A stretch of 57,903 nucleotides of DNA from IMG/VR virus record IMGVR_UViG_3300017724_000003, positions 1-57,903 of that record; one strand, written 5' to 3'. The notes under the pieces are model-generated. The model was not told where the DNA came from. It saw nothing but the letters and a program-made list of their open reading frames with translations, and ran no database searches. The stretch comes from a virus. This document shows, piece by piece, positions 13,362 through 35,476 of this stretch (positions are counted from its first letter, which is position 1; the number at the start of each line of letters is the position of its first letter). Both the position numbers and the translations under genes were made by a program.

Positions 13362-13376
13362 GTGTCTGTGACTTTG

Positions 13377-13458: not shown

Positions 13459-13464
13459 ATGTGA

Positions 13465-14084: not shown

Positions 14085-14135
14085 CAGGTTGGGCATCAGC
14101 CGCTGTCTATCTCGGCACGGCGTATTGTTTAGTGG

Positions 14136-14657
14136 TTATTCTTTCGGCTCTGACTTAAAGAACACAGCAAACGTAAACCTGTAGTAGGGCGCGCAGGCCG
14201 CAGGTGGCCGGAGCGCATGAGGGCTGTCAGCCTCCATCCATAACACTTGGCCAGGCTTGTATGGGATACACGTCTGGATGTCTACACCATTCTCTTCATA
14301 GATTATCGTCTCCCCCGCCCACTCTTGCTCCCAATCCAGGTTGGCGTAATACACCAACGTATCCTCGCCCATGTGTGCATGAGAGAAGAAGACGTTTTGT
14401 GGGATAGTCAGGTTGACGAATGACCGGAGTGGCTCCCTATCACCAATCAAGTCCAATAACTTTTGGTCGCGTATGCGTGGCAGGAAGTTCATGTTATCCA
14501 TGTCCTCCTCGCTATACGCTGATGTCAGGTATTGATGCGGCCTTGCCTTATCGCCAAGCCTGTCAGTGCCACCAATCGTGTACTTGCTTCTGTAGCAGAA
14601 CTCGTAGAACTCCTGCATCTCAGCGTATGAAAAGGGTTCTGGGAATAGTCTATACAT
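14136..14657 (-). CDS. 2OG-Fe(II) oxygenase-like protein
   Basis: SHAHMGED ... SPHALRP ... RFTFAVFF is compatible with an HxD/E...H...R dioxygenase core. Overlaps the primase-helicase stop by 8 nt. Confidence 0.45.
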   Translation of the reverse strand: MYRLFPEPFSYAEMQEFYEFCYRSKYTIGGTDRLGDKARPHQYLTSAYSEEDMDNMNFLPRIRDQKLLDLIGDREPLRSFVNLTIPQNVFFSHAHMGEDTLVYYANLDWEQEWAGETIIYEENGVDIQTCIPYKPGQVLWMEADSPHALRPPAACAPYYRFTFAVFFKSEPKE

Positions 14658-19809: not shown

Positions 19810-20059
19810 GATATTACAAGACGCGATTGATGTTATTGAAGAACGTGGTGAGAGCTACGGTCATCCTCGGGATAATCTAAAACGCATCGCCGAGATGTGG
19901 AGCACTTACTTAGGCATTGAGGTCGGCATGCACGACGTGGGTATGATGATGATATTGCTAAAGGTTGCTCGCACTGTTCCGACCCCTGCACATAGAGACA
20001 GCTTGGTTGATATTGTTGGTTATGTCGGCGCTATAGAGCAGGCACTAGACCTTGATTAA
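19802..20059 (+). CDS. Conserved phage protein of unknown function (start at ATG 19802)
   Basis: ERGESYGHPRDNLKRIAEMWSTYLG...ILLKVAR...HRDSLVDIVGYVG pattern recurs in many phage genomes. Confidence 0.6.
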   Translation: MSRILQDAIDVIEERGESYGHPRDNLKRIAEMWSTYLGIEVGMHDVGMMMILLKVARTVPTPAHRDSLVDIVGYVGAIEQALDLD

Positions 20060-20060
20060 G

Positions 20061-20222
20061 ATGTGGCATGTGACTGTCCGCGAGGCAGAAGAAGGCGCGA
20101 TGTTCTTAGACATGTCGGATGTCCTCGATGACATAGGCTGGGAGCATGGAGACGAACTTGTCTTCATCAAGAAGGAAGACGGCTCCATACTCATTCGGAA
20201 AAAGTTTAGTCCCAATCCTTAG
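20061..20222 (+). CDS. Small AbrB/SpoVT-like protein (53 aa); not in the ORF track
   Basis: ATG 1 nt after the upstream stop. ...LDDIGWEHGDELVFIKKEDGSILIRK resembles the looped-hinge-helix fold signature. Converges on and overlaps the giant gene by 17 nt. Confidence 0.4.
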   Translation: MWHVTVREAEEGAMFLDMSDVLDDIGWEHGDELVFIKKEDGSILIRKKFSPNP

Positions 20223-23200
20223 TCCAGTTAGTGTTCCAGCCTGATGACTTCTTGCCTGGTTTCGTTGGTTCTCCAGCCACCTTGTCTACGAGGTCTTCTC
20301 TGAGACTTCTGATGCCACCAGCTACAGGAATACGTTGAGCAACTGCTCTCATGGCATTTCTTTCTTTGCCTGTGCCGTTCTCATCTCCGCGCATTGCGGC
20401 ATCCCAACCACCAGATACAACGTCATATCCAGCCCACAAGGTTCCTACCCAAGGACCGCCTGCAACACCTGCTGTTCGCATGGCTCCGTAGGCACCGCCT
20501 TGGTCAACTTGTTCAGTAGTCTGATACATCATGTCTGCGAGGAGGCCCAAGCCACCGAGCATCACAAAGCCTTCCAGATACCAACCCAAGAATGCGTCTA
20601 CGTCTCCGTGTAAGCCAGGGTCGAAACCAAGACGTTCTGCCATTTCTTGTGCAGAGCGTTCTCGTAGATTGTCCCCGTCCTCACCACGTCTCTGCACCAC
20701 GTCTTTGACGGCCAGAGTTCCGGCACCCGCAGCAGGAGCCACCGAGGCCAGCATCAGGAGAGGACCAAAACGACGTCCACCACCTGTTACGGGGTCGACT
20801 TGTGTGGCCTGCTTGATGCTGTCGCCCACCATGCGCTGAAGCATAAGTGGGTATGACTTGAGCTGGAATATCATGGCACCGACGGGTGTCTGAGCCCACA
20901 ACGGAATGTCGTTGGGGTTAGGTGTGAAGATGCTTTCGTTAGCAAACTTGTTAATTGCAGAGCGAAGTTCAGGCATCTCGTTAAAGTCAGAGACGTTGTC
21001 GATGCGACGGTTTTGAGCCAGCATATCATCCAAGCCGTAACGACGGAGGATGCGGTACGCTTTCTTGAACGTCCGGTTCTGGGCGGTCAGTGGCGCTTGC
21101 GGGTTGAAGTTCGTAATCGCTCGGTTGAACTCAGACTTGAACCACTCAAAGCCAACTGCCCCAGCCATCTCACGCTGTGTATTTGTCCATGGTGTGAGCA
21201 TTGTGCCGTTAAAGAATGCGACAGTGTTCTTGGACGATACAGAGCCATAGAGACCCGTCATGCGCTCGTGAACAATGTTCTCAATCGCAACCCCAGAAGA
21301 CCTGATGAAGTCCCTGTAGTGTGGGTCTGCGGCGTATTTAGCCATACCCTGAGACCAAGACTTGAGGCTGCCAGTTCTGATGGCGGACAGTGCAGGGTCA
21401 CCTAATGACGTGAGGGTTGTGAAGCCCAACAATGTCACCGAGTTAAAGTTACGCATGTTCTTGGAGAAGGTATGAGCGCCAGAGAAGTTTACCGAAGAGG
21501 CATCAACTGGTTTGCGCATAATCGCGCGCATAACGCCGTTGGCACCTTTGACCACATCAGCGTGCGGACGGCTTCCAAGAGCCTGTCTATCCATGATTGC
21601 GCCAGTGATAGCATCCACGCGCTTCTCATAGACCCCTTTGTCTATTGCGTTTGTGCTTGTGTCGAGAGACATCAGATAATCTTTTACCGCAGCGCTTCCT
21701 TCTTGCGCACGGCTGATTGCTTCTTTTGCAGCCTCGACACCACCAGCACGGTCCTGGAACGGCATCGGTGTGATGCGCTCCAGACTGCCAATGTCTACGG
21801 TATCGTTAGTGTTGCTCTCGAATGAACGAAGCTCGCGCTTCGCTATTTTGTTCGTTGACAGCAGGTGGCCAATAGACTGGGTCATGTCACCCGAGTCCTC
21901 TATGACTAACATATAGTCATGGAAGCCGTGCGATTGTTGACCGAACTTCTGAGAGAAGTCGATGCGACGAACAGCACCGTCCACATACTTAGACATGATG
22001 GCCTCGAGGTCATCCTCTAAATAGTTTCCAACATCGTCGAGCTCTTCCACAAACTTATCTAGGCGAATGAGGCGCTGGTAATCAAGATGGTCACCAGTGA
22101 CGTCGCGACTGCCGCCAGTAGGCGGTGGTGTGTAGACACCATCGTCGTCGATGAGGTTGCCCATAACACGACGGGCTGTCTCTAGCGCCTGGTTATCATT
22201 CAAGGGGGCGTCTCTATCCATAGACTCACGCTTGAAATAGTTGGCCATGGACTTGAGGAAGGCGTCTTCGTTCTGACGTATCTTCTCGACATTCCAGACT
22301 TGTGGGAAGTAGTTGTTTACCGCCCCAATCATAACGCCCTGGTCCTTCATCTCTCCGTGTAGACGGTCAAAGATGCCCCGGATGTTTTTGTATGCAGCTC
22401 GTTCTGCTGCGTCCATGCTTTGCTCGTAGCGGTTGCCCGTTGGTCGGCGCAGTGCGTTCACAATTTTCCTGTGAGAACCAGGTTGTTTTGCGCGGAACTT
22501 CTCAGGCATGAACGTGTATTGAGTTTGCGAACGGAGCCATGAGTTTAGAGTTCCAGGGCTGTCCTTGAGGCTACGCAACTGCTTGAACAGTGGCACAAGT
22601 ATGCTGCCTGTCTTGCCGTTGACGCGCTCAAAGTGACCTGTGCCTGCCTCGCGCGATGGCGCAATCCAATCAGCAAACCAATTTAGTCCATCACGACGCA
22701 GACGCTCTGAGTTTTCAAGGAACCCTTTGTTCCAAAGTCGGCCCATTGCCCCAGCTTCGCGAGAGTCTGGCACCTTGCCTTTCGACATCTTAATCATGCC
22801 GCTAGTGGCAGACGGAGCCATGCCTGACTGGTCAAGCGCTACACCAAGAGACGTTGCGTGTTGTCCGTTTAGCTGAAGACCCTCAAACGCTGTAGACATA
22901 AACGCATTATTTACTGCACGAATGGCGGGCTTAGCGCCGAAGCCAATGTCACTGTCAATGCTCGTGTTGTCGAAGTAGGTGTCGTCTACCGGGCGGACGT
23001 TTTCGTTATGGAACACGACCAATGAACGCTTACCGTCCACAGTCTCAGTCACACTGTCGACGCCAATGTTGCCCAGTGTTGTGCGGATTTCACGTTCCGC
23101 TGTGGCGGGGTTCTTGGCGGATGGGTCTATTAGTCCCTTCAACCAAGCGTGAGCCTCAGTGCCTGTCATCTCTTGACTAAGACCCTCAGCGGCGAGCCGC

Positions 23201-26200
23201 AGTTTCTCTTGGGTAACGCCAGCATCACGAGCCATCAGGTCATTGACGATGGCATTGATTAAGCTGCTGTCTCTCATGTCGTATGACACGGCGTCGTCGA
23301 AGTGGGCGACGCTCTCTGCTTTGATATAGACAGGTTCCGCAGATTTTTGCCCAGGGAATAGACTGTCCAATTCCCTGTCTATTTCACTAATCTGGTACTC
23401 AGCTATCTCTGCTTCGGCGGAGAACACGTCAGCGTTCTCGCCCTGCTCAGCGCGGTCACGCATCTTTGCAGACAACTCTTGGAAGCGAGCCCTAGACTCG
23501 AGAAGCCCTTGCATGTCAGCAATAGCTTCCTCACTCTGGCCCTCCATGATTGACGCAATCTTTTCAGCAGTCAGCCCAGCTCGTTCGTCCACATCGGATG
23601 CGTCCATGAATACGCGTTTGGCACGACCAAACCCAGTCTTCTCTGGTTTAACCACACCACCTTTTGTGCGACCACCGAAGTATGGGACTGGTGTATCACC
23701 GCCCCCTACGCCGTTACCCACGAAGTTTAGGATTGCGTTCTTGCGACCCGGAGTCGCTGTGCTGAACGCCTCACCAGCAAACTCAGCGGCCATCGGTGTA
23801 GACATGCGTTCGCGTATGACAGTCGAGCGGCCAGGTAGGCTGGAGAACGATGCCTCCGGCGGCGAGAACATGTTGCCAAAGCGGTCAATCATTGGGTGAG
23901 CCAGCTTTAACTCGTTTGGCATTATACCGTTTGTCAAATAAGCGATGTTTTCTGACACATATTCAACCATCTCGATGGCGTCATTGCTCAGATTCAGCTT
24001 GTTAGAGCTTTTTCTCATGCTTGATTTAATGATGTTGATGGCTTGCTCGCGTGTTTCTACACCGAATACGTCCTGGACATCACCAACCTCAACCAATTCT
24101 GAGCCGATAACCAGGTCAATCAAGTCGTCTACCGCGCTTTCGTCCGACGCTTCAATCTTTACAGCGATTTTTCGGAGGTTATTGCGGGCGTTCTTGAAGG
24201 AGTCAGAAGCATAGTCACCCATAAACATCTCTGTATCGGTGGCTCGCGAATAGTCTCCGCCTATTGAGTTGAGTAATCCAATAGTCATCTCGCCTTCTTG
24301 CATCCCAGTCAGGATGTTAATGCGTGAGTACAATGTTCTCATGCCGTGGGCGACTACAGGGTTGCGCTGCGAAAGCTGGCTTTGTGCTTCGCGAAGTGCG
24401 AACGGGCCAGACGGTGTAACGCTGTCTTTGTCTACGCCTACGGTGTAAGTCACCTCAGTGCCTACTGCATCAGCTACGACTTGGTCGGTGACCCCAGTCT
24501 CTGTAATAGATGGGTCCTGAACTTCGGCGCGCTGCCTATGAAGCAACTCCATCCCAAGCTGACGACCGTAGTCGTTTTTGTTCTGGTCGAACGCACGCTG
24601 GATTTTGTCTGTAGACGCAACGCGAGGAGAGAACGTGTCCTCCATTTCGGTAGGAGCTGTTGTCGTAACATCTGGCTCTATAGCCTGCTGTTTGACTTGC
24701 GCCTCTGTCTTGGCTGGGCGCTTCTCAGCATTGCGGCGGCGCTTGGCGTTCCTGCCAATAGCCTTCATCTTCTCACGATACGGGTGTGGCTTCGGTCGAG
24801 GTGCCAAGGATAGGTCTGGCAGGATTTTAGATGCCTCGTCTGGCAGGTTGTTGAAGGTTTTACGGCCCTCTCCAATCATAATGTCCAGAATCTCGAATGC
24901 AGACATAGCCTGACCGTCTGTCTCTCCGTCAAGTATTCCATCAACTGCCTTGAGCACACTTTCTGCGCGGCGCTCAATACCAGAAAGGTAAGCGTCAGTT
25001 CTCATGAACTCATCGAACTCACCCGAGGCAACAACCTCTTCCGGCATATCAAGCGCGTCATAGATGCGCTTATACAGGGTGCGTGACAGCCCGTTTGTTT
25101 TCTTAGTTAAACCAAAGGATGTGTTATCCGAGCCTGCTCCAACCAAACCATACAGGCGGTTAGCCAGTTCTTGTGCTTGGTGCAGTATGCCTTCGGGGCT
25201 GTCTAGCTCTATTGCTTCGATTAGGTCATCTGCAATGAGCTGGAAGTCCACCATCCTGCGGACGAGTGCTTTACCGCCAGCAGACGAAGGCGCATCAACG
25301 CCTCCCTGAGCTGCGACTGCGCGCTCTGGCTCGGGCATAATTTTGGAGAACAAGGGAACCAGGTCTGCATCGACCTTGTTCGGGTTCATCATTTGGTCGA
25401 CGACATTACGAATGTAACGTGAGACCTCACCCCACCATTCAGGGCTGACGTACTGGCTCATTCTTTCGTAATAAGCAACGTCACGGAACTTGGGTGACAG
25501 ACGCTCTTGGTTAGCCCAAATCATAAACTGGTCTGCGAAAAATTCTTGGGGCGAACGCGTGTCCTTGCGCAAACGCATGGCTCCGGCCAGTTGTGCGTCA
25601 GGTACATTCATGTCGAGGATTGCGTCTTCGTCAGCTCTGCCCTCATTCATGTACTTCTGCATGCCATCCCAGAACGTGAGCCTGTCCTCATTGGAGAGGA
25701 CGTTATTGTATGCCCAGTGAGCAAGCTCGTGCACCATTGTGTGAACACGTGGCGTCATCGGGTTTACTTGTTCTGCGGCAACCTGGACGGTGTTTTGTTC
25801 AGGGCGGTACATACCGTTTGCGCCAGCAACATCAGGCTCACCAAATTTAGGTGACCCTTTGCCAGCACCAGACAGGACCTCAAGAAGGCGGCGGCCTTCT
25901 TTCTTTTCTGATGCGTTGAAGTTAATCGCGTGCACCTTAAATTGACGCTGACTCTCCTTGAGAGCCTCAGTCGGCAAGCGGATTTCTTCTGGAATGTACT
26001 TGGCTCGGAACTCATACATAGCGCGGACAAAGTCAACGACGTTGCCTTGCTTGTTTAAGTTGATACCACCACCATTTGCCTTGCCTATGTTAGGCCAGCC
26101 AACAGACATCTCCGCTGTTCGCAAGATGGTGTCTAGGCGCTGCTTGTTAATCTCAGCACCTTTGAGCCTACCCAACAATGCAAACGGGTTTTGACTTTGG

Positions 26201-29200
26201 TTGTCTCCCACGGGGATTAGTTCGGCCATATCCAGCAGCACATCAAGGTCTGCGTCAGCGATTTCCACTGGAATTTTAGATGCTTCGTATGAGCTAATGA
26301 ATGCACGCGCTGGTGCATTGGCACCAGGCGTGAATGGCTCAAAGGAACTCTCAGCGAGCTTTGTGCCGTAGGTTGCGCTTCCGTCTACGTAACCAACCTC
26401 AAAGTCCTTGATGCTGGACTTGCCGAGCAACGTGTTGATGTCAGCACCAGACTGGAGTTGTTTCTGCGAAATCACACGGATGGGTTTGTCCGGGTCAACG
26501 GGACGTAAGGCCAGGATTCTACCGTCTGCGTCTATGTTCGGAACGTCAGGTACATTTCCAGATACTTCGCCTTTGACCCTTTTAGTGTCAACGCCGTTGA
26601 CTTCTGCAATCAAACGGTCAAGGTCACCATGACCATCAACAAAGTCGTTAGCAATCTGAGTAAGACGGCTACGCTCTGGCATAGACGGCTCGTCGATGTT
26701 TACGTCAGCTTTGGGTGCACTCTCGGCTTCGCCACGCATGTAGCGCATGAGCGCTTCATCTTTGTAGTTTTGCTTAGTGACGGGGTCGTAAAAGTATCCC
26801 TTGCCATACTCGGCTCGCTCACGCTTGACTGCTTTACGGCCACCCGGGAGTGACTTGGTTGTTGCCGCACCACCAAAGATTTCTTCTCCGCCAGTGGAGA
26901 CGTAAGAGACGGGTGACATGTCTTGCTCGCGACGAGTCCGGGTTTTACCGTCCGGGTCGGTAACGTCCTTCATTAGCTCACGCTCTGCGTAAGCTCTTGC
27001 CTGGTCTGCACCATAAATGGTGTTACCCTTTGCGCCTTCGGTTCCTTTGATGACCTTGGGTGCTGGGCCGATAACTGTGCGCCCGTCGCCTATATCTGTG
27101 TTGCGACGCAGGAAGCTCTGTAGACGACCACGGGATGTGCGGCCAGCAGTTGTTTCAACTGGGGGACTTCCGAGTGGACTACTGGTTTGGCTTTTAGGCT
27201 CAGGCTTGGGCAAGAAGCTCTCGGACAGTGCTTGACCCTCTGCGATTGTCGTTGCGACATCCTCGTCCATGCTGGGGTTGTTTGCCAGCAGGTTCTCTTT
27301 GAGTATCTTTGCGCGACGCTTTTGTGTCTTTGTTAAGTTGGCGCGAGACTGGAATGCAGACTGAGCAAGCTCAGCTTCTACCGCATCCATCAGCTCGTCT
27401 GCATTCTTGGGGTCTGTTTTGCGTAAGATTTCCCTGATAACACGAGGCTCTTGCTCAAGCAGGGTAAAGAAACCATCATCGCCCAGCTTTTCGCGGATAG
27501 GTGTAAGCGCATTCAGGGCGCGCTCTGCGAGACCTTCGCCCAGTCGCGCTGAATCCCGCGCTTCTTTTGTGGCTTGTCGGAGCTGTTTGGTTGATTGCGT
27601 AGTAAGAGCGCCGCTATCGGTCGTATCAATATCGCCGTTGGCAATCATCGCACGCAAGTCATCCTCGTCCATGCCAGCATCTTCTAGCATCTTCGTCATG
27701 GTCTTGCGTTGGTTGTCGCTCCGATAGTTGATGTCTGCTGGCTGCTCGACCGCTTCGTCGGCTACGTCAGCTACTACATCTGGAGTTGCATCCGCTGGGC
27801 GTGCTGCTGTCTGTACCTCAACACCTTTGTTCTTGGCAATCTTCCTTACGTCGGCAATGGTAAATCCATTCTTGCCTGATGGTGTCTGGCCAGCGAAGTC
27901 TTCTGGAGTGAGCCCTGCGCCAACCGCTTTTTCTTTGACTGAGTTACGGCTGAACTTAAAGTCGTCCAGGTTCGGGGCGGGAGCTTCTTCCGCCTGAGCT
28001 TCTACATCCGGGGCTGCCTCGGTTGCTTCCGGGGTTGCGTCTTCTTTTTTCTTCTTCGCAGCAAACTCGGCTTCTGCCTTGCGTAGACGTTCTATGATTC
28101 CAGGGTCACCGTTCTCGATTGCCTGGTCGTACAGCGCACGCAGATTATTTAACTCAGTGTTGAGTCGGCGTGCTTTGTCTATTCGCGCTGGTTCGTTTGA
28201 AGCAAAGTTATCGGCAATCTCGGCCTGGTAGTTATTCATGCGGTCGCCAAGGCTACGCATCTCCGTCAACGTGTTTATTCTTGCCTGGATTGCTTCCTTG
28301 TTTCCTGGGTTATCAAGGTTGTCGCGCAGGTCTTCAGCCGCTCTGGCAATCTCATTATCAATCGCGGCTACGTTTATCTCGCGCCCTACGTCGATGCCAG
28401 TGCGGTTGTCTCCGTCAATCTCCGCTGCTTGTTGTGCGCCTGCATCAACGTCCGCATCAACTTCGGGTACTTCTTCTTCAATAAAGTCTGGGTTGGCTGA
28501 ACGCTGCAAGTCAGTCTTGAGGACTTGACCCACGTATGGCTGCGGCATTTGCAGGATGTCTTCTTCGGTGTATCCCAAGTCTGCGAGCTTTTTATTTTCG
28601 CGAGCGATGGTTCCTGGTGCGGCTACATTGCGGCCCATCTTTTGATAAGCGCCACCAGCGGCACCAAATACGCCACCAGCTACACCACCAAGAGCACCAC
28701 CAAGGGCTGTTGCTCCAGCAAGTTCGCCAACACTGAACCCGTCCTGTAGACCAACCTGTTGGTCTCGGACTTGCTCGAGCGCATTGAATGCGCCTTCAGT
28801 CAGTGCCCCGGCGGCTGCCTCGCCTTTGGCACCAGCCGTAACCGCTTTACGCATTACAGCATTGCCACCAGTTCTGATTGCAGCTTTCGCTGCTGCGCCA
28901 CCAGCCCCGAAACCAATTAGGTTAAGTGGGTCGGCTGCGGCAGCGAGAATGTTTTGACCAAGCCCAGCAGCACCGCGTCCGCCTTCTTCATAGAAGTTGG
29001 GCGTGCTGTCATAAACCTCTTTCATGCGGCGCATGAGAGTGACTTGTCTGTCGTCTGATGTGTATGCCTCACCAACCTGCTTGGCCAGTGAAACGGAGTT
29101 CATAGATGCCCACGTCTGGTCAGAGTAAAACTCATCAATCAGGTCGGCGTCATTATCGAAGTATTGGCTTTTCTTGGAATAGTATTCGCGCAGCTCAGCG

Positions 29201-29337
29201 ATAAAACGCGGGTCGCGAAATGCGTCCAGTCCAGTTGCGGTGCTTAATGTGCCTGAGTCGTAGGAAGAGACATCACTGACCTCTTCGTCAAAGCTGAACA
29301 GGTCGGTGTTGTAGTTGTTGTCAAACTCATTTGCCAC
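20206..29337 (-). CDS. Giant (3043 aa) virion-associated / ejection-type multidomain protein with an HExxH metallopeptidase-like motif and C-terminal hydrophobic segments
   Basis: Single uninterrupted ORF at the distal end of the late operon. GTG start with GGAG 8 nt upstream. HELAH encoded at 25717-25731 (aa 1203-1207). Gly/Ala-rich N-terminal segments, with TM-like stretches near the C-terminus. Confidence 0.8.
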   Translation of the reverse strand: MANEFDNNYNTDLFSFDEEVSDVSSYDSGTLSTATGLDAFRDPRFIAELREYYSKKSQYFDNDADLIDEFYSDQTWASMNSVSLAKQVGEAYTSDDRQVTLMRRMKEVYDSTPNFYEEGGRGAAGLGQNILAAAADPLNLIGFGAGGAAAKAAIRTGGNAVMRKAVTAGAKGEAAAGALTEGAFNALEQVRDQQVGLQDGFSVGELAGATALGGALGGVAGGVFGAAGGAYQKMGRNVAAPGTIARENKKLADLGYTEEDILQMPQPYVGQVLKTDLQRSANPDFIEEEVPEVDADVDAGAQQAAEIDGDNRTGIDVGREINVAAIDNEIARAAEDLRDNLDNPGNKEAIQARINTLTEMRSLGDRMNNYQAEIADNFASNEPARIDKARRLNTELNNLRALYDQAIENGDPGIIERLRKAEAEFAAKKKKEDATPEATEAAPDVEAQAEEAPAPNLDDFKFSRNSVKEKAVGAGLTPEDFAGQTPSGKNGFTIADVRKIAKNKGVEVQTAARPADATPDVVADVADEAVEQPADINYRSDNQRKTMTKMLEDAGMDEDDLRAMIANGDIDTTDSGALTTQSTKQLRQATKEARDSARLGEGLAERALNALTPIREKLGDDGFFTLLEQEPRVIREILRKTDPKNADELMDAVEAELAQSAFQSRANLTKTQKRRAKILKENLLANNPSMDEDVATTIAEGQALSESFLPKPEPKSQTSSPLGSPPVETTAGRTSRGRLQSFLRRNTDIGDGRTVIGPAPKVIKGTEGAKGNTIYGADQARAYAERELMKDVTDPDGKTRTRREQDMSPVSYVSTGGEEIFGGAATTKSLPGGRKAVKRERAEYGKGYFYDPVTKQNYKDEALMRYMRGEAESAPKADVNIDEPSMPERSRLTQIANDFVDGHGDLDRLIAEVNGVDTKRVKGEVSGNVPDVPNIDADGRILALRPVDPDKPIRVISQKQLQSGADINTLLGKSSIKDFEVGYVDGSATYGTKLAESSFEPFTPGANAPARAFISSYEASKIPVEIADADLDVLLDMAELIPVGDNQSQNPFALLGRLKGAEINKQRLDTILRTAEMSVGWPNIGKANGGGINLNKQGNVVDFVRAMYEFRAKYIPEEIRLPTEALKESQRQFKVHAINFNASEKKEGRRLLEVLSGAGKGSPKFGEPDVAGANGMYRPEQNTVQVAAEQVNPMTPRVHTMVHELAHWAYNNVLSNEDRLTFWDGMQKYMNEGRADEDAILDMNVPDAQLAGAMRLRKDTRSPQEFFADQFMIWANQERLSPKFRDVAYYERMSQYVSPEWWGEVSRYIRNVVDQMMNPNKVDADLVPLFSKIMPEPERAVAAQGGVDAPSSAGGKALVRRMVDFQLIADDLIEAIELDSPEGILHQAQELANRLYGLVGAGSDNTSFGLTKKTNGLSRTLYKRIYDALDMPEEVVASGEFDEFMRTDAYLSGIERRAESVLKAVDGILDGETDGQAMSAFEILDIMIGEGRKTFNNLPDEASKILPDLSLAPRPKPHPYREKMKAIGRNAKRRRNAEKRPAKTEAQVKQQAIEPDVTTTAPTEMEDTFSPRVASTDKIQRAFDQNKNDYGRQLGMELLHRQRAEVQDPSITETGVTDQVVADAVGTEVTYTVGVDKDSVTPSGPFALREAQSQLSQRNPVVAHGMRTLYSRINILTGMQEGEMTIGLLNSIGGDYSRATDTEMFMGDYASDSFKNARNNLRKIAVKIEASDESAVDDLIDLVIGSELVEVGDVQDVFGVETREQAINIIKSSMRKSSNKLNLSNDAIEMVEYVSENIAYLTNGIMPNELKLAHPMIDRFGNMFSPPEASFSSLPGRSTVIRERMSTPMAAEFAGEAFSTATPGRKNAILNFVGNGVGGGDTPVPYFGGRTKGGVVKPEKTGFGRAKRVFMDASDVDERAGLTAEKIASIMEGQSEEAIADMQGLLESRARFQELSAKMRDRAEQGENADVFSAEAEIAEYQISEIDRELDSLFPGQKSAEPVYIKAESVAHFDDAVSYDMRDSSLINAIVNDLMARDAGVTQEKLRLAAEGLSQEMTGTEAHAWLKGLIDPSAKNPATAEREIRTTLGNIGVDSVTETVDGKRSLVVFHNENVRPVDDTYFDNTSIDSDIGFGAKPAIRAVNNAFMSTAFEGLQLNGQHATSLGVALDQSGMAPSATSGMIKMSKGKVPDSREAGAMGRLWNKGFLENSERLRRDGLNWFADWIAPSREAGTGHFERVNGKTGSILVPLFKQLRSLKDSPGTLNSWLRSQTQYTFMPEKFRAKQPGSHRKIVNALRRPTGNRYEQSMDAAERAAYKNIRGIFDRLHGEMKDQGVMIGAVNNYFPQVWNVEKIRQNEDAFLKSMANYFKRESMDRDAPLNDNQALETARRVMGNLIDDDGVYTPPPTGGSRDVTGDHLDYQRLIRLDKFVEELDDVGNYLEDDLEAIMSKYVDGAVRRIDFSQKFGQQSHGFHDYMLVIEDSGDMTQSIGHLLSTNKIAKRELRSFESNTNDTVDIGSLERITPMPFQDRAGGVEAAKEAISRAQEGSAAVKDYLMSLDTSTNAIDKGVYEKRVDAITGAIMDRQALGSRPHADVVKGANGVMRAIMRKPVDASSVNFSGAHTFSKNMRNFNSVTLLGFTTLTSLGDPALSAIRTGSLKSWSQGMAKYAADPHYRDFIRSSGVAIENIVHERMTGLYGSVSSKNTVAFFNGTMLTPWTNTQREMAGAVGFEWFKSEFNRAITNFNPQAPLTAQNRTFKKAYRILRRYGLDDMLAQNRRIDNVSDFNEMPELRSAINKFANESIFTPNPNDIPLWAQTPVGAMIFQLKSYPLMLQRMVGDSIKQATQVDPVTGGGRRFGPLLMLASVAPAAGAGTLAVKDVVQRRGEDGDNLRERSAQEMAERLGFDPGLHGDVDAFLGWYLEGFVMLGGLGLLADMMYQTTEQVDQGGAYGAMRTAGVAGGPWVGTLWAGYDVVSGGWDAAMRGDENGTGKERNAMRAVAQRIPVAGGIRSLREDLVDKVAGEPTKPGKKSSGWNTNWTKDWD

Positions 29338-29408
29338 GTCGGTACTCCAGTTTCCGGTTTAGTGGATATTTCCACCAAACTACTGGAGAACCTGCTATGT
29401 GGTCGTCC

Positions 29409-31283
29409 TTATTGGAGAGCCTCAATTATGCGGCGGCGTAACTCTGCCTCCTCCGCTTTGGCATCCGCGCCATCAGGTCGACCGTATCGGTTCAGAGGTG
29501 TCGTTCTGATAAGGCCAGCTTGGTCCATAATGGTGTCGAACATTTTGTTTGATGGACGTTGATTGCTTCGAGGGTTCACCCTGCGGCCAGGAGCCGAGAA
29601 CGACTGAGCGTTACCACCCATCCGACGGACTTCCTCAGCAAGGCGCTGGATGTCAGCATCGCTAATATCTCTGTTTGTTAGTCCGCCCGCTACTCGACGG
29701 CTCGCAAGGTCAAGCTGACCTTCGACGCTCGCTCTGCGTTCCAGAAGCATCATCTTTTGCTGCTCAAGTGTGGCTTTCGCAGTTTCGCCGGAGGCGTTGT
29801 TCGCGGTTATCATCTGCGCGTTAAAGTCGCCGTCAAACGTCGCCAGGAAGTTTGCTTGGTTTTGGCCGTATGCTACAGCGCCATTGATTTGCTGGATGTC
29901 TCTGTCAATCCTGGCCAACTCAGCATCAATATCTGCCATGTGAGCTTGGTATGCTTGAGGACCAAAGCGAGACTGCATCTTGTTCATCTTGCCCGCGAGA
30001 TAATCATCGGTAGGCTGAGCGACCTTAGCGGTTCGGTCGGCTGATTCTCGAACGCGAACGCCTATCTCTCCCTCGTTTCCGCTGTCGCCGAACATCTCTT
30101 TTGAGTAGGCGCTGGCGGTGGTCATGGCTTTTGGGCGGCCCGTTGCACTAACGTATGAGTCCACTAGCCTAGACTCGTAATCGGCGATAGGCACCAACTG
30201 TCCCCCAGCGGACTGGAGGATTTTGTTTACCGCGTCGTCATACGTGATGTCGTCTTCGTCTACCAACTGCTGCGCAGCAGCAATAACTCCTGATATGCCG
30301 CCTGCACCTGCTGGACGATAGGAAGTAGAGATGGCTCTGATGGCGTCTTGCACACCTTGTGGGTAGCTATCCAAGTTGATGGCATTCTTCATTCTCTCGG
30401 ATATTGCTTCAGACTGATTCTTGGCATACGTCATAGCCTCGGAACGAGACTTGCCTATCGTTTCGGTATGGAGCGTCTGCTGCTGAGTTTGAATCGCGTT
30501 GTTGATGAATGTCTTGATTTGAGGGTCTGCGTTAGCGTAGCGGCCCAGCTCAGGCATAATCATCTCAAGCTGCCCATCGCGGTACATATTGATTGCATTA
30601 GGGTCAGAGGCCAGCGTTCTTACTTGCTGGTACATCTCTGCTCTTTTGGCTTCGTCGAACTTGCTCTTTTGGTTGGTGAAAGCTGTTCTGAATGCAGGCG
30701 CATTTGCAATACCTTTGTTGGCGAGGCCCGTTGCAAAATCATCATAGGTGCCAAAGTTCTCAATGACCTGTGTCATTGAGTCTTGGTTGTCATCAAGGTA
30801 GCGACGGACAAACTGGTTCTCTACGTTGTTGTCCAGATTGTTGACGAAGTTCTGGAGCTCAGGCATCGCCAGGGACGCATACTCAGAAGACGGGGTGTCA
30901 AGCTCTAGCCTCTTTAAGACCTGGTCTTTTGCTAAGCCAAAGTTCCCTGTGTCGAGGTATCCAGTATAGAGCTGCTCACGAATTTCTTTCTTGCGCCTGT
31001 CCATGAAGTCCATGTCTTGACCCATGCGCGTGCGCTCTGCTTCAAGGCGTGCCTCGCGGTTACGCTTTGCGACTTCGTCTACAGCCTGGCGATTTCCGCC
31101 CGCAGCACGCAGATAAGGATTCCCACCAGCTATCTGGTTGATGGCCGATTGCAGCTCTGTCGCTGTGGCGTATGGGTTATTCTTCTTGAAGTCCTCATAG
31201 GCTTTTGCGACGTCCAGACGCTTGGTTTCCAATTCGTCTGTGCGGTCCCGATAACCTTCGTAAGCGTATCCACCGAATGCCAT
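29409..31283 (-). CDS. Large internal virion / ejection protein candidate (624 aa)
   Basis: Long helical, Q/A/R-rich ORF in the late operon next to other coiled-coil proteins. Function inferred from position only. Confidence 0.6.
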   Translation of the reverse strand: MAFGGYAYEGYRDRTDELETKRLDVAKAYEDFKKNNPYATATELQSAINQIAGGNPYLRAAGGNRQAVDEVAKRNREARLEAERTRMGQDMDFMDRRKKEIREQLYTGYLDTGNFGLAKDQVLKRLELDTPSSEYASLAMPELQNFVNNLDNNVENQFVRRYLDDNQDSMTQVIENFGTYDDFATGLANKGIANAPAFRTAFTNQKSKFDEAKRAEMYQQVRTLASDPNAINMYRDGQLEMIMPELGRYANADPQIKTFINNAIQTQQQTLHTETIGKSRSEAMTYAKNQSEAISERMKNAINLDSYPQGVQDAIRAISTSYRPAGAGGISGVIAAAQQLVDEDDITYDDAVNKILQSAGGQLVPIADYESRLVDSYVSATGRPKAMTTASAYSKEMFGDSGNEGEIGVRVRESADRTAKVAQPTDDYLAGKMNKMQSRFGPQAYQAHMADIDAELARIDRDIQQINGAVAYGQNQANFLATFDGDFNAQMITANNASGETAKATLEQQKMMLLERRASVEGQLDLASRRVAGGLTNRDISDADIQRLAEEVRRMGGNAQSFSAPGRRVNPRSNQRPSNKMFDTIMDQAGLIRTTPLNRYGRPDGADAKAEEAELRRRIIEALQ

Positions 31284-31293
31284 TACTTATCTC

Positions 31294-32763
31294 CTAACCG
31301 TTAAAAATGCCGCCGGGTTTCTTTTCATCTAAGAAACTCCCGAGACTTGTAACAACATCAGCGCCCGCACTACCCGCTGCTCTATACGCGTCTGCGGTTC
31401 GGTCGTAAGCCTTATCGGCAGACGCCTGCGCGTTCGTTGCATTTGAGTTAAGAGCAGTCGAGCCTTGCTGGAAGAAAGTGTTGGCGTCTGGTGTGTTGAG
31501 GTTTGGCATCGCTGCATAACCAGAGGCTTGCGTGCCTGCCATGCTCAGTGTCGGCATATTTAGTGTGCTTCCATACCCTTGAGACAGGTTTCCGATGGAG
31601 CGGATTTGACTGTCAATATCCAACGGCCCACTCACCCCTACCATAGATGTGCTCGGACCACGCGATGTGTATGCGTTGTAAGCGCTACCAACATCACGGT
31701 CTAAGACGCCAGATGTGCTTGGGTTGCTGAGTCGAGCCTGAATATCAAGGCCAGTTGTGCCTACTTGCTGCTCAGCATCAAGATTAACGCCGAGGGCTTC
31801 ACGTAGGTTCTTGAAGCGGTCTTGTGCGATTTGATTTTCTGCCGCCACTTCACGTCCAGCTTGGGTGTTTGCATCAGCACGAGCCCGCATGAACTGAGGA
31901 GCAATCCGTGCCAATATCTCTGCACGCTGCGCGTTGCTTGAGCCACCGCCTTGCATGCCTTTCCTGATAAGGTCGGCTTCTAGTGTAGACAGGTTTCTGT
32001 CGAGTGCTTGGTCTACCTCTTGACTGTACTGGTCGTAGTAGCGGTTAGACAGACGAGATATGTCATCTGCGCCAGCGAGCTCTGGTGCGGTGATGCGACC
32101 GTACTCATCGAGTACACCGCGCATGCGGTTGCGAGTGTCTACGGCTTGACCGATTGCTTGGTTCTGGCGGTCGATTTCAAAGCGTCGCTCTTCCTGTCGC
32201 GCCAACTTGTCTTCGTCCAGACGACGTAGACGTTCCTGGTATTCGTCCGCTACAACCTGGTCACCCCGGTCCATTCGTCTTTGTTCTTCACGGCGCTGAC
32301 GTCGCGCTCTATCGCGCTCACGCTGAAGTTCAGCTAGAGCAAACTCACGCTCTTGTCGCGTTAATTTATCGTCTCGAGCAATCCGCTCGAGCTCAAACTC
32401 GCGTCGGTCACCCTCTAGTTCATCGGTCATTGCCTGGCGACCAACAGTTCTGTTTATCTGGTCGGTAAGGCGCTCCTCATTACGAACATCAAATCCGCGC
32501 AAATAGCGTTGACGTTCTTGTTCGGCGAGGTTTTGTTGCCTAGCAAGCTCTTGGCGGTATTCGTTTTGCTCTTCTGCAATACGCATGTTGTATGCGCCAA
32601 GCTCTGTCATTGCTGCTGCATTGGACAGGTTATCTTTGCGAGCTTGTTCTGCTACCGCATTTTGATACGCCAGTTGTTTGGCTTGTTGCTTGGCTGCCTT
32701 ATTGGAGCCAAACATGCCTGCAACAGATGAGCCTACAGCGAAGGCTGTTGAGAACGCGACCAT
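31294..32763 (-). CDS. Coiled-coil internal virion protein candidate (489 aa)
   Basis: Hydrophobic N-terminus (MVAFSTAFAVGSSVAGMFG) followed by an extremely E/R/Q-rich helical region. Confidence 0.6.
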   Translation of the reverse strand: MVAFSTAFAVGSSVAGMFGSNKAAKQQAKQLAYQNAVAEQARKDNLSNAAAMTELGAYNMRIAEEQNEYRQELARQQNLAEQERQRYLRGFDVRNEERLTDQINRTVGRQAMTDELEGDRREFELERIARDDKLTRQEREFALAELQRERDRARRQRREEQRRMDRGDQVVADEYQERLRRLDEDKLARQEERRFEIDRQNQAIGQAVDTRNRMRGVLDEYGRITAPELAGADDISRLSNRYYDQYSQEVDQALDRNLSTLEADLIRKGMQGGGSSNAQRAEILARIAPQFMRARADANTQAGREVAAENQIAQDRFKNLREALGVNLDAEQQVGTTGLDIQARLSNPSTSGVLDRDVGSAYNAYTSRGPSTSMVGVSGPLDIDSQIRSIGNLSQGYGSTLNMPTLSMAGTQASGYAAMPNLNTPDANTFFQQGSTALNSNATNAQASADKAYDRTADAYRAAGSAGADVVTSLGSFLDEKKPGGIFNG

Positions 32764-32766
32764 AGT

Positions 32767-35049
32767 CTAGTTCCTTCCTAGCGCAATGTTCTGCGCAAAC
32801 GATGATTGGTTAAGCATGTTGAGCAATTCGTCTTCCTCAGACTGGTTGGCCAGGAAGGCGTTTAATTGTTCTTCTGTCATAACGTCGTTAGCGTCTCCTA
32901 CGCTTGGGAACTGCAAGTTACCGAACTGGTCAATCAGCGCCTCAATCTCCGCAGCGCCTTGGCCTTCACGGAACGCGACCTCGTCAGCATCGCCTGCCAG
33001 TCGATTGCTTTCTTTGGCAAGGACTTGCTCAAGAGCGGCAAGCTCGTCTGCTGCTTGTTGTGCACCGAAGGTCTCGGCTCGCTGACGTATCTGCTCAACT
33101 TCTTGCCGCGCAGTGTCCACGTCTGAGGGATTAAAGAACTCACGGTTCCTGATGTCTTGCAGTGATGCCAATGCGTCAGACTCAATGCCTCCACGCTCAC
33201 CACCTAGCTCTCTCAAGCGGGCGTCGACTTGACCAATAGCATCTTCGATAGCGTTGACGTTTGCTGTTGTACCGCCCTGGAATCGGCCCAGGTCGGCCAG
33301 CTCACGTTCAAAATCTGAACGTCGACTCATAAGCCCGGACTCATCAGACAATGCTATGTCCTGTAGCCCGGCCAGGGACTCATCAATATCAGTTGTCGGG
33401 TCGTCTACGCGGCCAGAGAGGAGCTCGGCCACGACGTTCCTTTGTGCCTCAAGGGCTTGGTTACGCCCTCCAAGCAGCTCATCAAGGGATGCTCGCGCGC
33501 CAGACAACCCTGCGGATGCACCGGAGAAGTCTGTGGACAGGTCGGACGTTACGCCACCAATATCTGCCTCAAGGGCAGATAGCGCGTCCTGTAGGTCTTC
33601 GATTTCAGACAGGTTATACATGTCCTGGCGGTCACTTATGCGGCCAAGGGAATCTGCGCGGTTCTGGAAGTTGCGACCAAGGCCAGAGAGGCGGCTCTGC
33701 TCAGCAGCCCGCTGCTGACCCAAAGAGTAAATGTCCTCGTCTAGGTCATAGAGGTCTGCAAGCTCGTTGGAGAAGTTAAAGTCCAAGTCGCTCTCAAAGT
33801 CGCGCAATGCTCCGCGCTGTGTGTCGAGCCTTCCAGTGAGGGCCTCGATGGTTTCGGCGTCTGCATCGGCAATGCCCATCCTGTCTAAGGATGCAATGAG
33901 GTCGTCTATTTCTGTGCGAGCCGTACCAGAGGCAGTGTCGACCCGACCCTGCTCTAATTCTTTTGCTGATGTGCGCCCTGCAATAATGTTCTCCAGCTCG
34001 GTAAGTTCGTTGAGGGCCGCCTTCCGGTTGTCATCAAATCCGAGCACGCTATCAAACGCGTTGATGTCGTTGCGAGCTACCGCAAGTTCTCGTGCGTATT
34101 TACCGAAGTCATCGTTGATGTCGGCAAACTCCACGTCGATGTCAGCAGCGTTTGCTTGATTTACGTAGTCAGAAAAGAAGTCCTCAATGCGACCCTTTTC
34201 TGCGGTCTCTTCAGAACGCAGGCCAGAGATAAGTGCTTCGATGTCGTCAATTTGAGTTTGGTACCTGTCCGTCATACCAACATTCAGCTTGTTCAGAGTT
34301 GGCATGTCATAGGCAACAGCGCCGCCGTATGAGGTGCCAGCGGCTTGGAACCCTGGGTCTACAGGCATACCAAAAGCGTCGTAGTCTATAAGTTTATCGT
34401 AATAAGTCCCCGTGTCGCCAAAATTTCTGCCGCCGTAGGGGTCGTAGGTAAAGTCCTCAATGCCTTCTCCTAAGTCACCGTAGAGCGTATTGCTGATTGA
34501 GGAGCTTATACCGCTGATGTCCCACCACGGTATATTGTTCTGCTTCTTCCAGTTAAATACATCGCCGGGACTAGCAACGTCTACGCCATCGGCAATCATT
34601 CTTTTTCGCAAGTTTTCTTTCTGGTCTAATTCGCGCTGGGCCTTTTTCGACTTCTGCCCCGAGATTTCGTCAGCGTATAACGATTCATAGGCAGCCTTGT
34701 CCGTATTGAAGCGCCGCTTGTTATCTGCAACACGCTCTTCGTTGGTTTGCAGAAAGTCGACGTCTCCTTGTGATACACCAGCGAAGTTGCGGTCGAGAGC
34801 CTTTAGGTCTGTCTGAATATCACCAAGGCCGGAAAGGTCATCGCCTAGCTTTAGGCCAGACACTGTGTCGGTGTAGTTATCAAGCGTTGAGCCAAAACCG
34901 GACAACTGCGTGTTGAAGTCATCAACTCGCGAGTTGTACGCTTTAGCGATGTTTCCTCGGCGATAGTTCTCACTTCTCACCTGGTTTTGTCGCTGCTTTG
35001 TATAATCGGGCGGCGGCGGGGGAGCCGGAGGTCCTGATTTCTTACCCAT
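32767..35049 (-). CDS. Acidic coiled-coil virion protein candidate (760 aa) with an N-terminal poly-Pro stretch
   Basis: MGKKSGPPAPPPPPDY... followed by D/E/L-rich repeats. Late operon context. Confidence 0.6.
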   Translation of the reverse strand: MGKKSGPPAPPPPPDYTKQRQNQVRSENYRRGNIAKAYNSRVDDFNTQLSGFGSTLDNYTDTVSGLKLGDDLSGLGDIQTDLKALDRNFAGVSQGDVDFLQTNEERVADNKRRFNTDKAAYESLYADEISGQKSKKAQRELDQKENLRKRMIADGVDVASPGDVFNWKKQNNIPWWDISGISSSISNTLYGDLGEGIEDFTYDPYGGRNFGDTGTYYDKLIDYDAFGMPVDPGFQAAGTSYGGAVAYDMPTLNKLNVGMTDRYQTQIDDIEALISGLRSEETAEKGRIEDFFSDYVNQANAADIDVEFADINDDFGKYARELAVARNDINAFDSVLGFDDNRKAALNELTELENIIAGRTSAKELEQGRVDTASGTARTEIDDLIASLDRMGIADADAETIEALTGRLDTQRGALRDFESDLDFNFSNELADLYDLDEDIYSLGQQRAAEQSRLSGLGRNFQNRADSLGRISDRQDMYNLSEIEDLQDALSALEADIGGVTSDLSTDFSGASAGLSGARASLDELLGGRNQALEAQRNVVAELLSGRVDDPTTDIDESLAGLQDIALSDESGLMSRRSDFERELADLGRFQGGTTANVNAIEDAIGQVDARLRELGGERGGIESDALASLQDIRNREFFNPSDVDTARQEVEQIRQRAETFGAQQAADELAALEQVLAKESNRLAGDADEVAFREGQGAAEIEALIDQFGNLQFPSVGDANDVMTEEQLNAFLANQSEEDELLNMLNQSSFAQNIALGRN

Positions 35050-35476
35050 GTTTAATCCACCTACACTCTTCTTTTAACATTCCAAAGATGATTGCTGCAT
35101 CTTCGTCTTCGTCACCAAAGAACCGTCTGACTTTTCCTTCATTGGTGAAGCCCAGACGCTCCGTTAATCTCACCGACTTTTCATTTCCTAGTCTTGCGTT
35201 AGTAGTAAGCCGAACCACCTTGCAAGTAATAAAGGGATATGAAAACAACTCCCTTAATACTGGCCTCGTCAGGGCCCTTTTGTCGTCCAACCAAATGGAC
35301 GCCCAGATTTCTCGCACCGTATAGCAAGAGTAAGTAACTCCGCCAACGAGCTTTTTCTCCTCACTGTCCCAGATGCCGATTGACGAGTTCGGCTCCGCGA
35401 AGGGAGGACATTCACACTTGGTTGCACATATTTGAGCCAACTCGGCTTGTCCTTCATAAATAGGGACAAACCGCAT
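35042..35476 (-). CDS. GNAT-family N-acetyltransferase (RimJ/RimL-like)
   Basis: C-terminal NEKSVRLTERLGFTNEGKVRRFF...AIIFGML matches the GNAT motif A/B region. Overlaps both neighbours by 1-8 nt. Confidence 0.7.
   Translation of the reverse strand: MRFVPIYEGQAELAQICATKCECPPFAEPNSSIGIWDSEEKKLVGGVTYSCYTVREIWASIWLDDKRALTRPVLRELFSYPFITCKVVRLTTNARLGNEKSVRLTERLGFTNEGKVRRFFGDEDEDAAIIFGMLKEECRWIKHG

Follow-up and report, generated by a model that had tools for sequence, protein, structure and literature searches.

We conclude that a 3043-residue open reading frame (ORF) in the IMG/VR virus record IMGVR_UViG_3300017724_000003 (positions 1 to 57,903 of that record, all 57,903 nucleotides of which we refer to as the window) probably encodes the largest internal virion (ejection) protein of its phage, as an enlarged representative of the class of T7 gp16 and internal virion protein D. 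We put the probability of this reading at roughly 0.7. A sequence-only reading of the window, made before our analysis, had remarked that the ORF lies where podovirus ejection proteins are encoded. This placement is supported, and the terminal modules match the T7 gp16 family both by profile and by predicted fold. Since the two profile matches to that family occur in the gp16 order, the simplest description is of a gp16-class protein that carries an insert of ~1950 residues between its two gp16-like modules. The coordinates of all features discussed below are collected in Table 1.

The sequence-only reading had recommended a segmented domain and structure search, and it was segmented scans against Pfam and PHROG that carried the domain matches; segments matched where the whole protein did not, and whole-protein scans found nothing useful. 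The C-terminal (C) module matched phrog_684, a 'virion structural protein' family (E-value 3.9e-14), and phrog_342, annotated as 'internal virion protein with endolysin domain' (E-value 2.2e-13, profile positions 531-673), and the N-terminal (N) module (residues 122-232) matched positions 311-408 of the same phrog_342 profile (E-value 1.2e-4). That profile represents the T7 gp16 family, as shown by scores of 1354.7 bits for T7 gp16 itself, which matches over its full length, and of 825.5 bits for LKD16 gp37. Among 17 C modules of the family that were tested, 15 matched phrog_684 and 3 matched phrog_342, with a best E-value of 7.4e-28. Direct alignment of the C module with the single sequence of T7 gp16 by hhalign was collinear over 659 columns (Prob 16.5%, E-value 0.0015), and the same comparison with T7 gp15 gave nothing. 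Single-sequence hhalign comparisons of the N module with T7 gp16 and with the N4 N-terminal domain were not significant, though the Gly/Ala-rich region was visibly similar.

Predicted structures were obtained with AlphaFold2 (AF2) for residues 930-2129 (mean predicted local distance difference test (pLDDT) score 66) and for residues 2190-3043 (pLDDT 70.5, predicted template-modelling score 0.71). The second of these models, which covers the C module, is almost wholly helical, and a Foldseek search with it against the BFVD collection of viral models returned 61 matches at E≤1e-3, with query-normalised TM-scores of 0.4-0.56. The top three were close family members that UniProt names 'Large polyvalent protein associated domain-containing protein'. 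These were followed by the KPP25 structural protein, Vibrio VP2, Bordetella BB8 'Internal protein D', Ralstonia RSB3, LKA1, CB5A 'protein inside capsid D' and proteins with SLT domains, so that the matches after the family members were mostly internal virion or core proteins of podoviruses.

The genomic position of the gene is that of the class. T7 gp16 and LKD16 gp37 are each encoded by the last and largest gene of the ejection cluster, and the giant gene is likewise the last and largest of its structural operon, in the window as in three related loci, where it follows an ORF of ~620-635 residues. Locus order is kept in a Poseidonocella prophage, an Azospirillum prophage and a metagenome contig, and runs from the tail genes through several ORFs of 260-650 residues and the ORF of ~620-635 residues to the giant gene. 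The Poseidonocella locus has an extra 273-residue ORF between the last two, the Azospirillum and metagenome loci have a GNAT acetyltransferase after the tail genes, and in the related loci a divergent replication module (AAA_24, Prim-Pol) comes after the giant gene. The window also contains a GNAT-type acetyltransferase (35042-35476; phrog_4470, E-value 3.7e-29) within the structural operon, where it separates the tail genes from the presumed ejection genes, as in the Azospirillum and metagenome loci. The three large proteins that the sequence-only reading had seen ahead of the giant ORF (760, 489 and 624 residues) are charged and rich in Ala, Gln, Arg and Asp; they gave no family matches and are candidate analogues of gp14/gp15 or of N4 gp51/gp52.

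The extent of the ORF given by the sequence-only reading (9.1 kb, ~16% of the genome) was confirmed at 9132 of 57,903 nucleotides, or 15.8% of the window. The ORF closes its operon and converges on plus-strand genes, and its 3′ end overlaps by 17 nucleotides (20206-20222) the convergent ORF at 20052-20222, which ends a series of plus-strand ORFs; a search for an intrinsic terminator after the giant ORF, between the converging gene blocks, found none. Elsewhere the window encodes an SU10-type portal, a large terminase, a major capsid protein and tail fibres. Because no matches to tail tube, sheath or tape-measure proteins were found among the window proteins, the virion is likely to be short-tailed.

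The giant protein has no cysteine in its 3043 residues, whereas the average of the other window ORFs (0.62% cysteine) predicts ~19, and with the three upstream proteins it forms a run of four consecutive proteins (20206-35049, 4916 residues together) without any. Of 151 family members, 139 have zero cysteines and none has more than two. T7 gp15 and gp16, LKD16 gp36 and gp37, N4 gp50, gp51 and gp52, and KPP25 ORF088 (of which the 1788-residue C-terminal part was examined) are also free of cysteine. We infer that this absence is consistent with passage of the unfolded proteins through the tail channel and periplasm, and zero cysteine could act as a simple compositional marker for podovirus ejection proteins.

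A first search returned 31 homologues of 2.0-4.1 thousand residues, almost none of which had a Pfam annotation, plus one identical protein (P0001); more than 150 family representatives are also present in public data. A BLAST map of the homologues showed three conserved parts, at residues ~30-230, ~1190-1340 (around a HExxH motif) and ~2200-3030. When 1.84 billion representative proteins (50% identity) were searched with a profile built from A1, an alignment of the C-terminal part, 4284 matched at E≤1e-3, of which 1999 reached E≤1e-10 and 277 reached E≤1e-30; the best 150 were nearly all of 2.8-4.1 thousand residues with the module at the extreme C terminus. The family is found in marine metagenomes and in alphaproteobacterial prophages. 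Two further large homology searches were unproductive, one with the N4 C terminus that yielded nine close relatives and one with the A1 profile that yielded three matches.

A protein search of deposited phages matched only CRP-810 (OR671924, 57.7 kb; host FZCC0198), which is collinear with the window and is the only cultured relative; a nucleotide search with 20 kb of the window against phage genomes gave no match. The CRP-810 orthologue (21570-31210, 22-48% identical) is annotated as gp36, gp35 and gp34 in three reading frames, with frame junctions near 30065-30111 and 24061-24089. This arrangement could reflect frameshifts introduced by sequencing or assembly, programmed frameshifting or a gene that is truly divided. 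The label 'internal virion protein D' sits on gp36 only, the piece that matches the N terminus of the giant protein (48% identity over residues 40-141). The paper that describes CRP-810 does not discuss the giant gene and reports no morphology.

Between the terminal modules lies a peptidase-like module. The sequence-only reading had pointed to a zinc-metallopeptidase-like HELAH at residues 1203-1207 with a possible third ligand in a downstream SPQEFFAD, and both were located as claimed, within what proved to be a conserved zincin-type module in which the downstream Glu is also conserved and is the predicted third ligand. Conservation of the motif among homologues, which that reading had made a touchstone of its interpretation, was extensive: the pattern HE[LMIV][AG]HW.Y.N.L occurs in 31 of 32 first-round homologues, a SPQEFFANQF helix ~60 residues downstream is conserved equally, and all 151 full-length family representatives have one or more HExxH motifs on the N-terminal side of the C module. 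Residues H1203, E1204, H1207 and E1265 are invariant in a 10-sequence alignment (A2), and the number of HExxH motifs expected by chance for the composition of the giant protein is 0.016. The AF2 model places two helices, three short strands, the HExxH helix, an insert and the Glu helix in order around the motif (pLDDT ~63-90), as in the zincin core topology described by Iyer, Burroughs, Anand, de Souza and Aravind (2017; PMC5512222).

Database matches to this module were of graded strength. Pfam returned DUF6782, a 'putative metallopeptidase', at an E-value of 3.2e-5, under the curated cut-off, and MPTase-PolyVal at an E-value of 0.2 (12.2 bits, for a cut-off of 27.5). An hhalign comparison with an alignment of the N4 gp50 C-terminal region gave Prob 65% (E-value 6e-5) over 231 columns with the HExxH motifs aligned, and a search of N4 with a single hidden Markov model (HMM) was weak; the C1 zincin domain of N4 occupies residues 2124-2375 of gp50 (PMC13434306). 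Foldseek with the peptidase-containing model found PPEP-1/Zmp1 (family M34) at E-values of 3.6-6.8, which are not significant, and hhalign of the peptidase alignment with single gp16-class sequences misaligned the motif. Taken together, sequence and model indicate a genuine zincin-type domain with metal-binding residues under selection, and the alignments suggest that it is probably related to the N4 gp50 domain.

Two further enzyme modules are recognizable in the giant protein by comparison with its homologues. Several of these have a second HExxH (HE[IV]xH[LM]..R) ~600-700 residues further on, followed by an 'EEWFAE' helix; this is a second copy of the peptidase. In the alignment, the giant protein has DDLID in place of the second HExxH, and the segment with the Glu ('EEWFAE') helix is deleted; the strict second motif is intact in 44 of 151 relatives. 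The third module resembles ART-PolyVal, whose defining residues are a strand-1 His, a strand-2 Tyr and a strand-5 Asp (Iyer et al., PMC5512222). Homologue P0023 exceeds the Pfam cut-off for this domain (37.1 versus 31.2 bits), P0009 matches it weakly, and the giant protein gave no Pfam ART-PolyVal match, either whole or in segments. Its C-terminal half of the domain (residues 1997-2123), a region conserved in 28 of 32 sequences, keeps PVYIKA, GVDSV and VVFHNEN; its N-terminal half is altered, with 'VVFYHGT' changed to 'PVPYFGGRT' and 'GPGxY' to 'GFGRAKRVF', and the catalytic His and Tyr are lost. Because residues have been lost from both the second peptidase and the ART domain, the giant protein appears to have one intact enzyme module and two relics, where three modules are recognizable and homologues keep two or three.

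Much of the remaining length has no enzymatic character. The gp16-like alpha-helical body accounts for ~28% of the protein and the acidic low-complexity linker for ~23%. The linker contains 15-21% Asp plus Glu, counted per 100 residues, over residues 201-700 and 12-17% beyond, is poorly conserved (5-10 of the 31 homologues align there), and had no family match over residues 236-929 in the segmented Pfam and PHROG scans. It is followed by a conserved pre-domain, residues 930-1099, for which the segmented Pfam scan matched no known family. Its motif, GR.LA.R...IRV.S..Q...G....LLGK...DFEVGYV, was found in all aligned homologues, and its strands fall at residues 12-17, 50-55 and 84-86 of the AF2 model (pLDDT 54-90). 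The Gly/Ala-rich segments that the sequence-only reading had noticed near the N terminus were found, with hydrophobic peaks at residues 130-148 and 206-224, as were the hydrophobic segments near the C terminus, GPLLMLASVAPAAGAGTLAV and FLGWYLEGFVMLGGLGLLA; the Gly/Ala module resembles T7 gp16 residues ~325-420 and the membrane-spanning region 224-278 of N4 gp50. The earlier suggestion that novel enzymatic modules could be hidden in the protein was overstated, as much of it is helical body and linker and the other two recognizable modules are degenerate. We conclude that most of its length is scaffold, tether and relics, not hidden enzymes; the earlier interpretation was otherwise largely right.

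The protein can be compared with several characterized systems. With T7 gp16 and phiKMV-LKD16 gp37 (PHROG 342) it shares collinear profile matches to the Gly/Ala module and the helical body, an absence of cysteine and a predicted fold like that of many proteins labelled internal virion protein D, and with LKD16 gp37 also a HExxH domain between the Gly/Ala module and the body. It differs from the T7 gp16 class in being 2.3 times longer and in having no SLT or lysozyme domain, for which neither whole-protein nor segmented Pfam and PHROG scans gave a match. In LKD16 gp37 (12161-16171), residues 415-563, with a HExxH at residue 423, match positions 2098-2250 of phrog_2206, the PHROG family of the N4 virion RNA polymerase (vRNAP), at an E-value of 7.3e-17, and these positions correspond to the N4 C1 zincin region. 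At the level of sequence, LKD16 gp37 thus links gp16-class proteins to N4 gp50; the ejection proteins of a schitovirus (DEV) have been described as having no detectable sequence similarity to T7 gp14-gp16 (PMC13434306). Residues 559-563 of T7 gp16 read HERLH and lie between its Gly/Ala-rich region and its helical body.

The giant protein also resembles N4 gp50 of the Schitoviridae, which has been called an analogue of T7 gp16 and whose helices 224-278 insert into nanodiscs (PMC13434306). Both are ~3000-3500 residues long, lack cysteine and have long low-complexity linkers in a beads-on-a-string arrangement, the gene for each stands third in an ejection operon, behind an ORF of ~640 residues, and both have a Gly/Ala-rich N-terminal region (membrane-inserting in N4) and a HExxH zincin. 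In N4, a low-complexity linker joins the N-terminal helices to the remainder of gp50, which is proposed to travel as 'beads on a string' anchored in the inner membrane (PMC13434306). Unlike N4 gp50, the giant protein has no RNA polymerase domain, and its phage group, which is temperate, presumably uses the host polymerase. Its C module is gp16-like and not N4 C2-like; homology of the C module to the N4 gp50 C terminus or C2 was ruled out (hhalign Prob 0.3%), and BLAST and HMM comparisons of the giant protein and the three upstream ORFs with N4 gp50, gp51 and gp52 gave only noise.

A third comparison is with the phage polyvalent proteins (Iyer et al. 2017; PMC5512222), which are likewise giant, multidomain and encoded by phages with portal and terminase genes, and among which the zincin peptidase is the commonest and most connected domain. 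The sequence-only reading had likened the giant protein to these injected multidomain proteins, a view that stands in part: the giant protein has a zincin, homologues have ART-PolyVal (H-Y-D) and extra peptidase copies, and UniProt names relatives accordingly, but the other two enzyme modules are degenerate here. The giant protein differs from polyvalent proteins in having a single intact enzyme module, in not reaching the Pfam cut-offs for the polyvalent peptidase and ART, and in having the framework of a gp16-class ejection protein. The terms gp16, 'internal virion' and 'ejection' are absent from PMC5512222, and our literature search found no paper that joins 'internal virion protein' and 'polyvalent protein'. 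Finally, outside the CRP-810 group, the nearest relative that we found in a named phage is ORF088 of Pseudomonas phage KPP25, a 'structural protein' of ~2010 residues. Its C module is the same (hmmsearch E-value 1.5e-37, hhalign Prob 99.3%), with a HExxH module just upstream, and the protein differs in being ~1000 residues shorter, in having the peptidase adjoin the body with no ART remnant detected, and in belonging to another genome type (DNA polymerase A plus helicase).

Several observations weigh against assignment to the gp16 class or against a working peptidase within it. Neither AF2 model has a significant match among solved structures: Foldseek returned nothing at E<0.1, from a library that probably predates the structures of the N4 gp50 C-terminal domain (9PNR and related entries), and profile searches with the C module, the middle region and the N terminus found nothing significant among solved-structure sequences. 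The direct comparison with the single sequence of T7 gp16 is weak, the N-module match lies in compositionally biased sequence and is the weaker evidence, and the C module has no sequence similarity to the N4 C2 domain. The podovirus assignment depends on the SU10-type portal and the absence of long-tail matches. As to the peptidase, its Pfam matches fall below curated cut-offs. Moreover, PMC5512222 and PMC13434306 report no peptidase activity for the N4 C1 domain, and N4 gp50 is packaged unprocessed (PMC5512222), so that a conserved motif may not mean proteolysis.

By analogy with T7 gp16 and N4 gp50, we infer packaging, ejection, membrane insertion, catalytic activity and a substrate for the giant protein as follows. 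A few copies would be packaged in the capsid in a loosely folded, beads-on-a-string-like form; indirect signs of packaging are the structural annotation of the KPP25 homologue and the cysteine-free composition that the protein has in common with known ejection proteins. On infection, they would exit via the tail after the three upstream cysteine-free proteins, which would build the channel through the outer membrane and periplasm. The Gly/Ala module (residues ~116-235), and possibly the C-terminal hydrophobic helices, would then insert in the inner membrane and form the inner end of the DNA channel. The zincin, held on the 700-residue acidic tether, would refold on the cytoplasmic side and cut a protein. 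Our best guess for its substrate is the ejection proteins themselves, for release or dismantling, with host proteins as a second choice.

The evidence points to a role of the intact peptidase in the ejection process at least as much as in attack on the host. A zincin is kept in LKD16 gp37, KPP25 ORF088, N4 gp50 and all 151 family representatives, whereas the ART domain and second peptidase come and go, and for this reason we favour a function of the zincin within ejection (self-processing, cargo release or channel dismantling) as first choice and an anti-host function as second; the two are not exclusive. The competing view, that of the sequence-only reading, is that the protein is mainly an injected anti-host polyvalent effector. 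The end modules would then be handles for packaging and delivery, and the peptidase would break down defence or housekeeping proteins of the host within minutes of infection. Homologues with ART-PolyVal and a second peptidase, both typical effector modules, agree with this, as do the UniProt naming of relatives as containing the large polyvalent protein associated domain and a middle region whose variation between relatives looks like an arms race; action on host proteins is one possible role of such peptidases (Iyer et al., PMC5512222). However, it is just these variable effector modules that have decayed in the giant protein, whereas the peptidase is a core module, present throughout the family, in gp16-class proteins of ordinary size and in N4 gp50, which fits a housekeeping role in ejection better, and conservation is highest in the terminal modules, which account for more than 35% of the protein. 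We therefore regard a mainly anti-host function as unlikely, while leaving it a real minority chance.

The opposite possibility, that the protein is purely structural or regulatory and serves as anchor, tether and channel part, with a HExxH that binds metal or partners without cleavage, would agree with the fact that PMC5512222 and PMC13434306 report no proteolysis by N4 C1 and with the packaging of N4 gp50 in unprocessed form, as well as with the sub-threshold Pfam peptidase matches and the clear decay of the two other enzyme modules. It is harder to reconcile with the invariance of both His residues, the catalytic Glu and the distal Glu across sequences of ~20-70% identity, and with the presence of HExxH in every full-length representative. 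Because the first copy is invariant while the second loses residues freely, selection appears to act on catalysis or at least on metal binding, and we consider a non-catalytic protein rather improbable.

A cell-wall function would have the zincin take the place of the T7 gp16 lytic transglycosylase or the phiKMV gp37 lysozyme and cleave Lpp-type tethers or the peptides of peptidoglycan, opening a way for the channel across the periplasm. The absence of an SLT or lysozyme match from a protein of a class that usually has a wall-degrading domain speaks for this, and N4 ejection proteins have no identified peptidoglycan hydrolase (PMC13434306). On the other side, LKD16 gp37 has a HExxH as well as an annotated C-terminal lysozyme motif, so that the two are not alternatives. 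To our knowledge, HExxH gluzincins are not the usual class of peptidoglycan peptidases. In addition, a 497-residue ORF of the tail module (37025-38518) has a weak 'amidase' PHROG match (E-value 2.1e-10) and could supply cell-wall hydrolysis as a virion-associated enzyme, which would explain a giant protein without SLT or lysozyme. There is, in our view, little chance that the zincin is a cell-wall enzyme.

A tape-measure, tail needle or tail fibre protein of a long-tailed phage might be suspected from the very large size, the long helical regions, the unpublished morphology of CRP-810-type phages and a weak tape-measure PHROG match from one of the 17 C modules tested (E-value 4.4e-4). The giant protein itself gave no tape-measure match in whole-protein or segmented PHROG scans, the window has no matches to tail tube, sheath, tape-measure chaperone or baseplate proteins, the portal is of the SU10 podovirus type, the profile and fold matches are to podovirus internal virion proteins, and a peptidase is present. 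We therefore think this origin very improbable; the sequence-only reading had itself named a tail, needle or tape-measure protein as the finding that would undo it, and that is not what we found. Least probable, to the point of being negligible, is a cryptic vRNAP like that of N4 gp50 or of crAss-like phages, an idea prompted by the resemblance to N4 gp50 in size, in operon position and in the HExxH domain, because there is no match to the N4 vRNAP Pfam domains or to phrog_2206, Foldseek with residues 930-2129 found no polymerase fold among solved structures, residues 236-929 are of low complexity, and the relatives are temperate phages with integrases (PMC11288001). Pfam, PHROG, Foldseek and the gene content of the window effectively exclude both the tape-measure and the cryptic polymerase readings.

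The preferred reading, an enlarged gp16-class ejection protein, raises a broader idea that we hold only tentatively and consider more doubtful than not: that T7 gp16, phiKMV/LKD16 gp37, KPP25 ORF088, N4 gp50 and the giants of 3-4 thousand residues belong to one inner-membrane ejection lineage, built from a Gly/Ala module, a zincin and a helical body, into which cargo has been spliced (SLT, lysozyme, RNA polymerase, ADP-ribosyltransferase, extra peptidases). If such a shared framework existed, the zincin would belong to the basic machinery of podovirus genome delivery and would not be an anti-host weapon; it might, for instance, cleave ejection proteins so that cargo is freed, or so that the channel closes once the DNA has entered. 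The giant protein would then be a natural 'RNA-polymerase-less N4 gp50' and offer a simpler background for the function of the N4-type HExxH.

Ejection proteins of the gp16 class, polyvalent proteins (PMC5512222) and giant ejected proteins such as that of N4 are known kinds. What appears to be new is their combination, a gp16 framework with a polyvalent-type insert in a very large and essentially unannotated family, together with a clear pattern in which one enzyme module is conserved while two decay. A single polypeptide thereby links the gp16 class with the polyvalent/N4 class of injected proteins, and the family separates a module under constant selection, the first zincin, from modules that come and go, the ART domain and second peptidase. 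Both how podoviruses pass very large proteins through an ejection channel ~35 Å wide and what these proteins do after arrival are active questions (PMC13434306), and the giant gene belongs to the core genes of CRP-810-type roseophages, which occur worldwide. The cultured relative CRP-810 makes virion proteomics and active-site mutants feasible, and if the zincin proved to be core to ejection, a role would also be assigned to the HExxH domain of N4-like vRNAPs.

Table 1. Positions in the window of the giant ORF, its modules and motifs, and the ORFs upstream of it.
Feature	Residues	Nucleotides	Strand	Basis or remark
Giant ORF	3043 aa	20206..29337	minus	GTG start; stop codon included
GGAG ribosome-binding site		29345..29348	minus	7 nt upstream of GTG; read directly in the sequence
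N-terminal conserved region	30-115	28993..29250	minus	Motifs DPRF..ELR.YY and FYSD..W...N; kept in 30 of 31 homologues
Gly/Ala-rich amphipathic module	116-235	28633..28992	minus	DPLNLIGFG motif; candidate inner-membrane anchor
Acidic low-complexity linker/tether	236-929	26551..28632	minus	Composition
Conserved pre-domain, mixed strands and helices	930-1099	26041..26550	minus	Alignment A2, AF2 model
Zincin-type metallopeptidase module	1100-1350	25288..26040	minus	Sole enzyme domain with intact catalytic motifs
HELAH motif	1203-1207	25717..25731	minus	Sequence
SPQEFFADQF helix	1262-1271	25525..25554	minus	E1265 is the predicted third zinc ligand
Helical spacer	1351-1700	24238..25287	minus	Basic Pro-rich disordered stretch at ~1500-1600
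Degenerate second peptidase	1701-1870	23728..24237	minus	DDLID (1737-1741, nt 24115-24129) in the place of HExxH
ART-PolyVal-like remnant	1871-2125	22963..23727	minus	Alignment with homologues
C module, alpha-helical body	2190-3043	20209..22770	minus	Family-defining; like T7 gp16 / internal virion protein D
Hydrophobic helix GPLLMLASVAPAAGAGTLAV	2858-2877	20707..20766	minus	Conserved in A1 consensus
Hydrophobic helix FLGWYLEGFVMLGGLGLLA	2916-2934	20536..20592	minus	GWYLEG..GGLGL conserved in A1
Upstream ORF	624 aa	29409..31283	minus	Candidate partner ejection protein
Upstream ORF	489 aa	31294..32763	minus	Candidate partner ejection protein
Upstream ORF	760 aa	32767..35049	minus	Candidate partner ejection protein

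Two other genes of the window were noted in passing. A 2OG-Fe(II) oxygenase (43948-44490; phrog_61, E-value 1.9e-39) lies among small ORFs between the capsid and tail-fibre genes, and the ORF at 46149-47969 encodes a tail-fibre-like protein with collagen triple-helix repeats (Pfam Collagen, E-value 4.3e-14). The highest G+C content of the window (0.597 at 46001-48000) covers this collagen-repeat tail-fibre gene.

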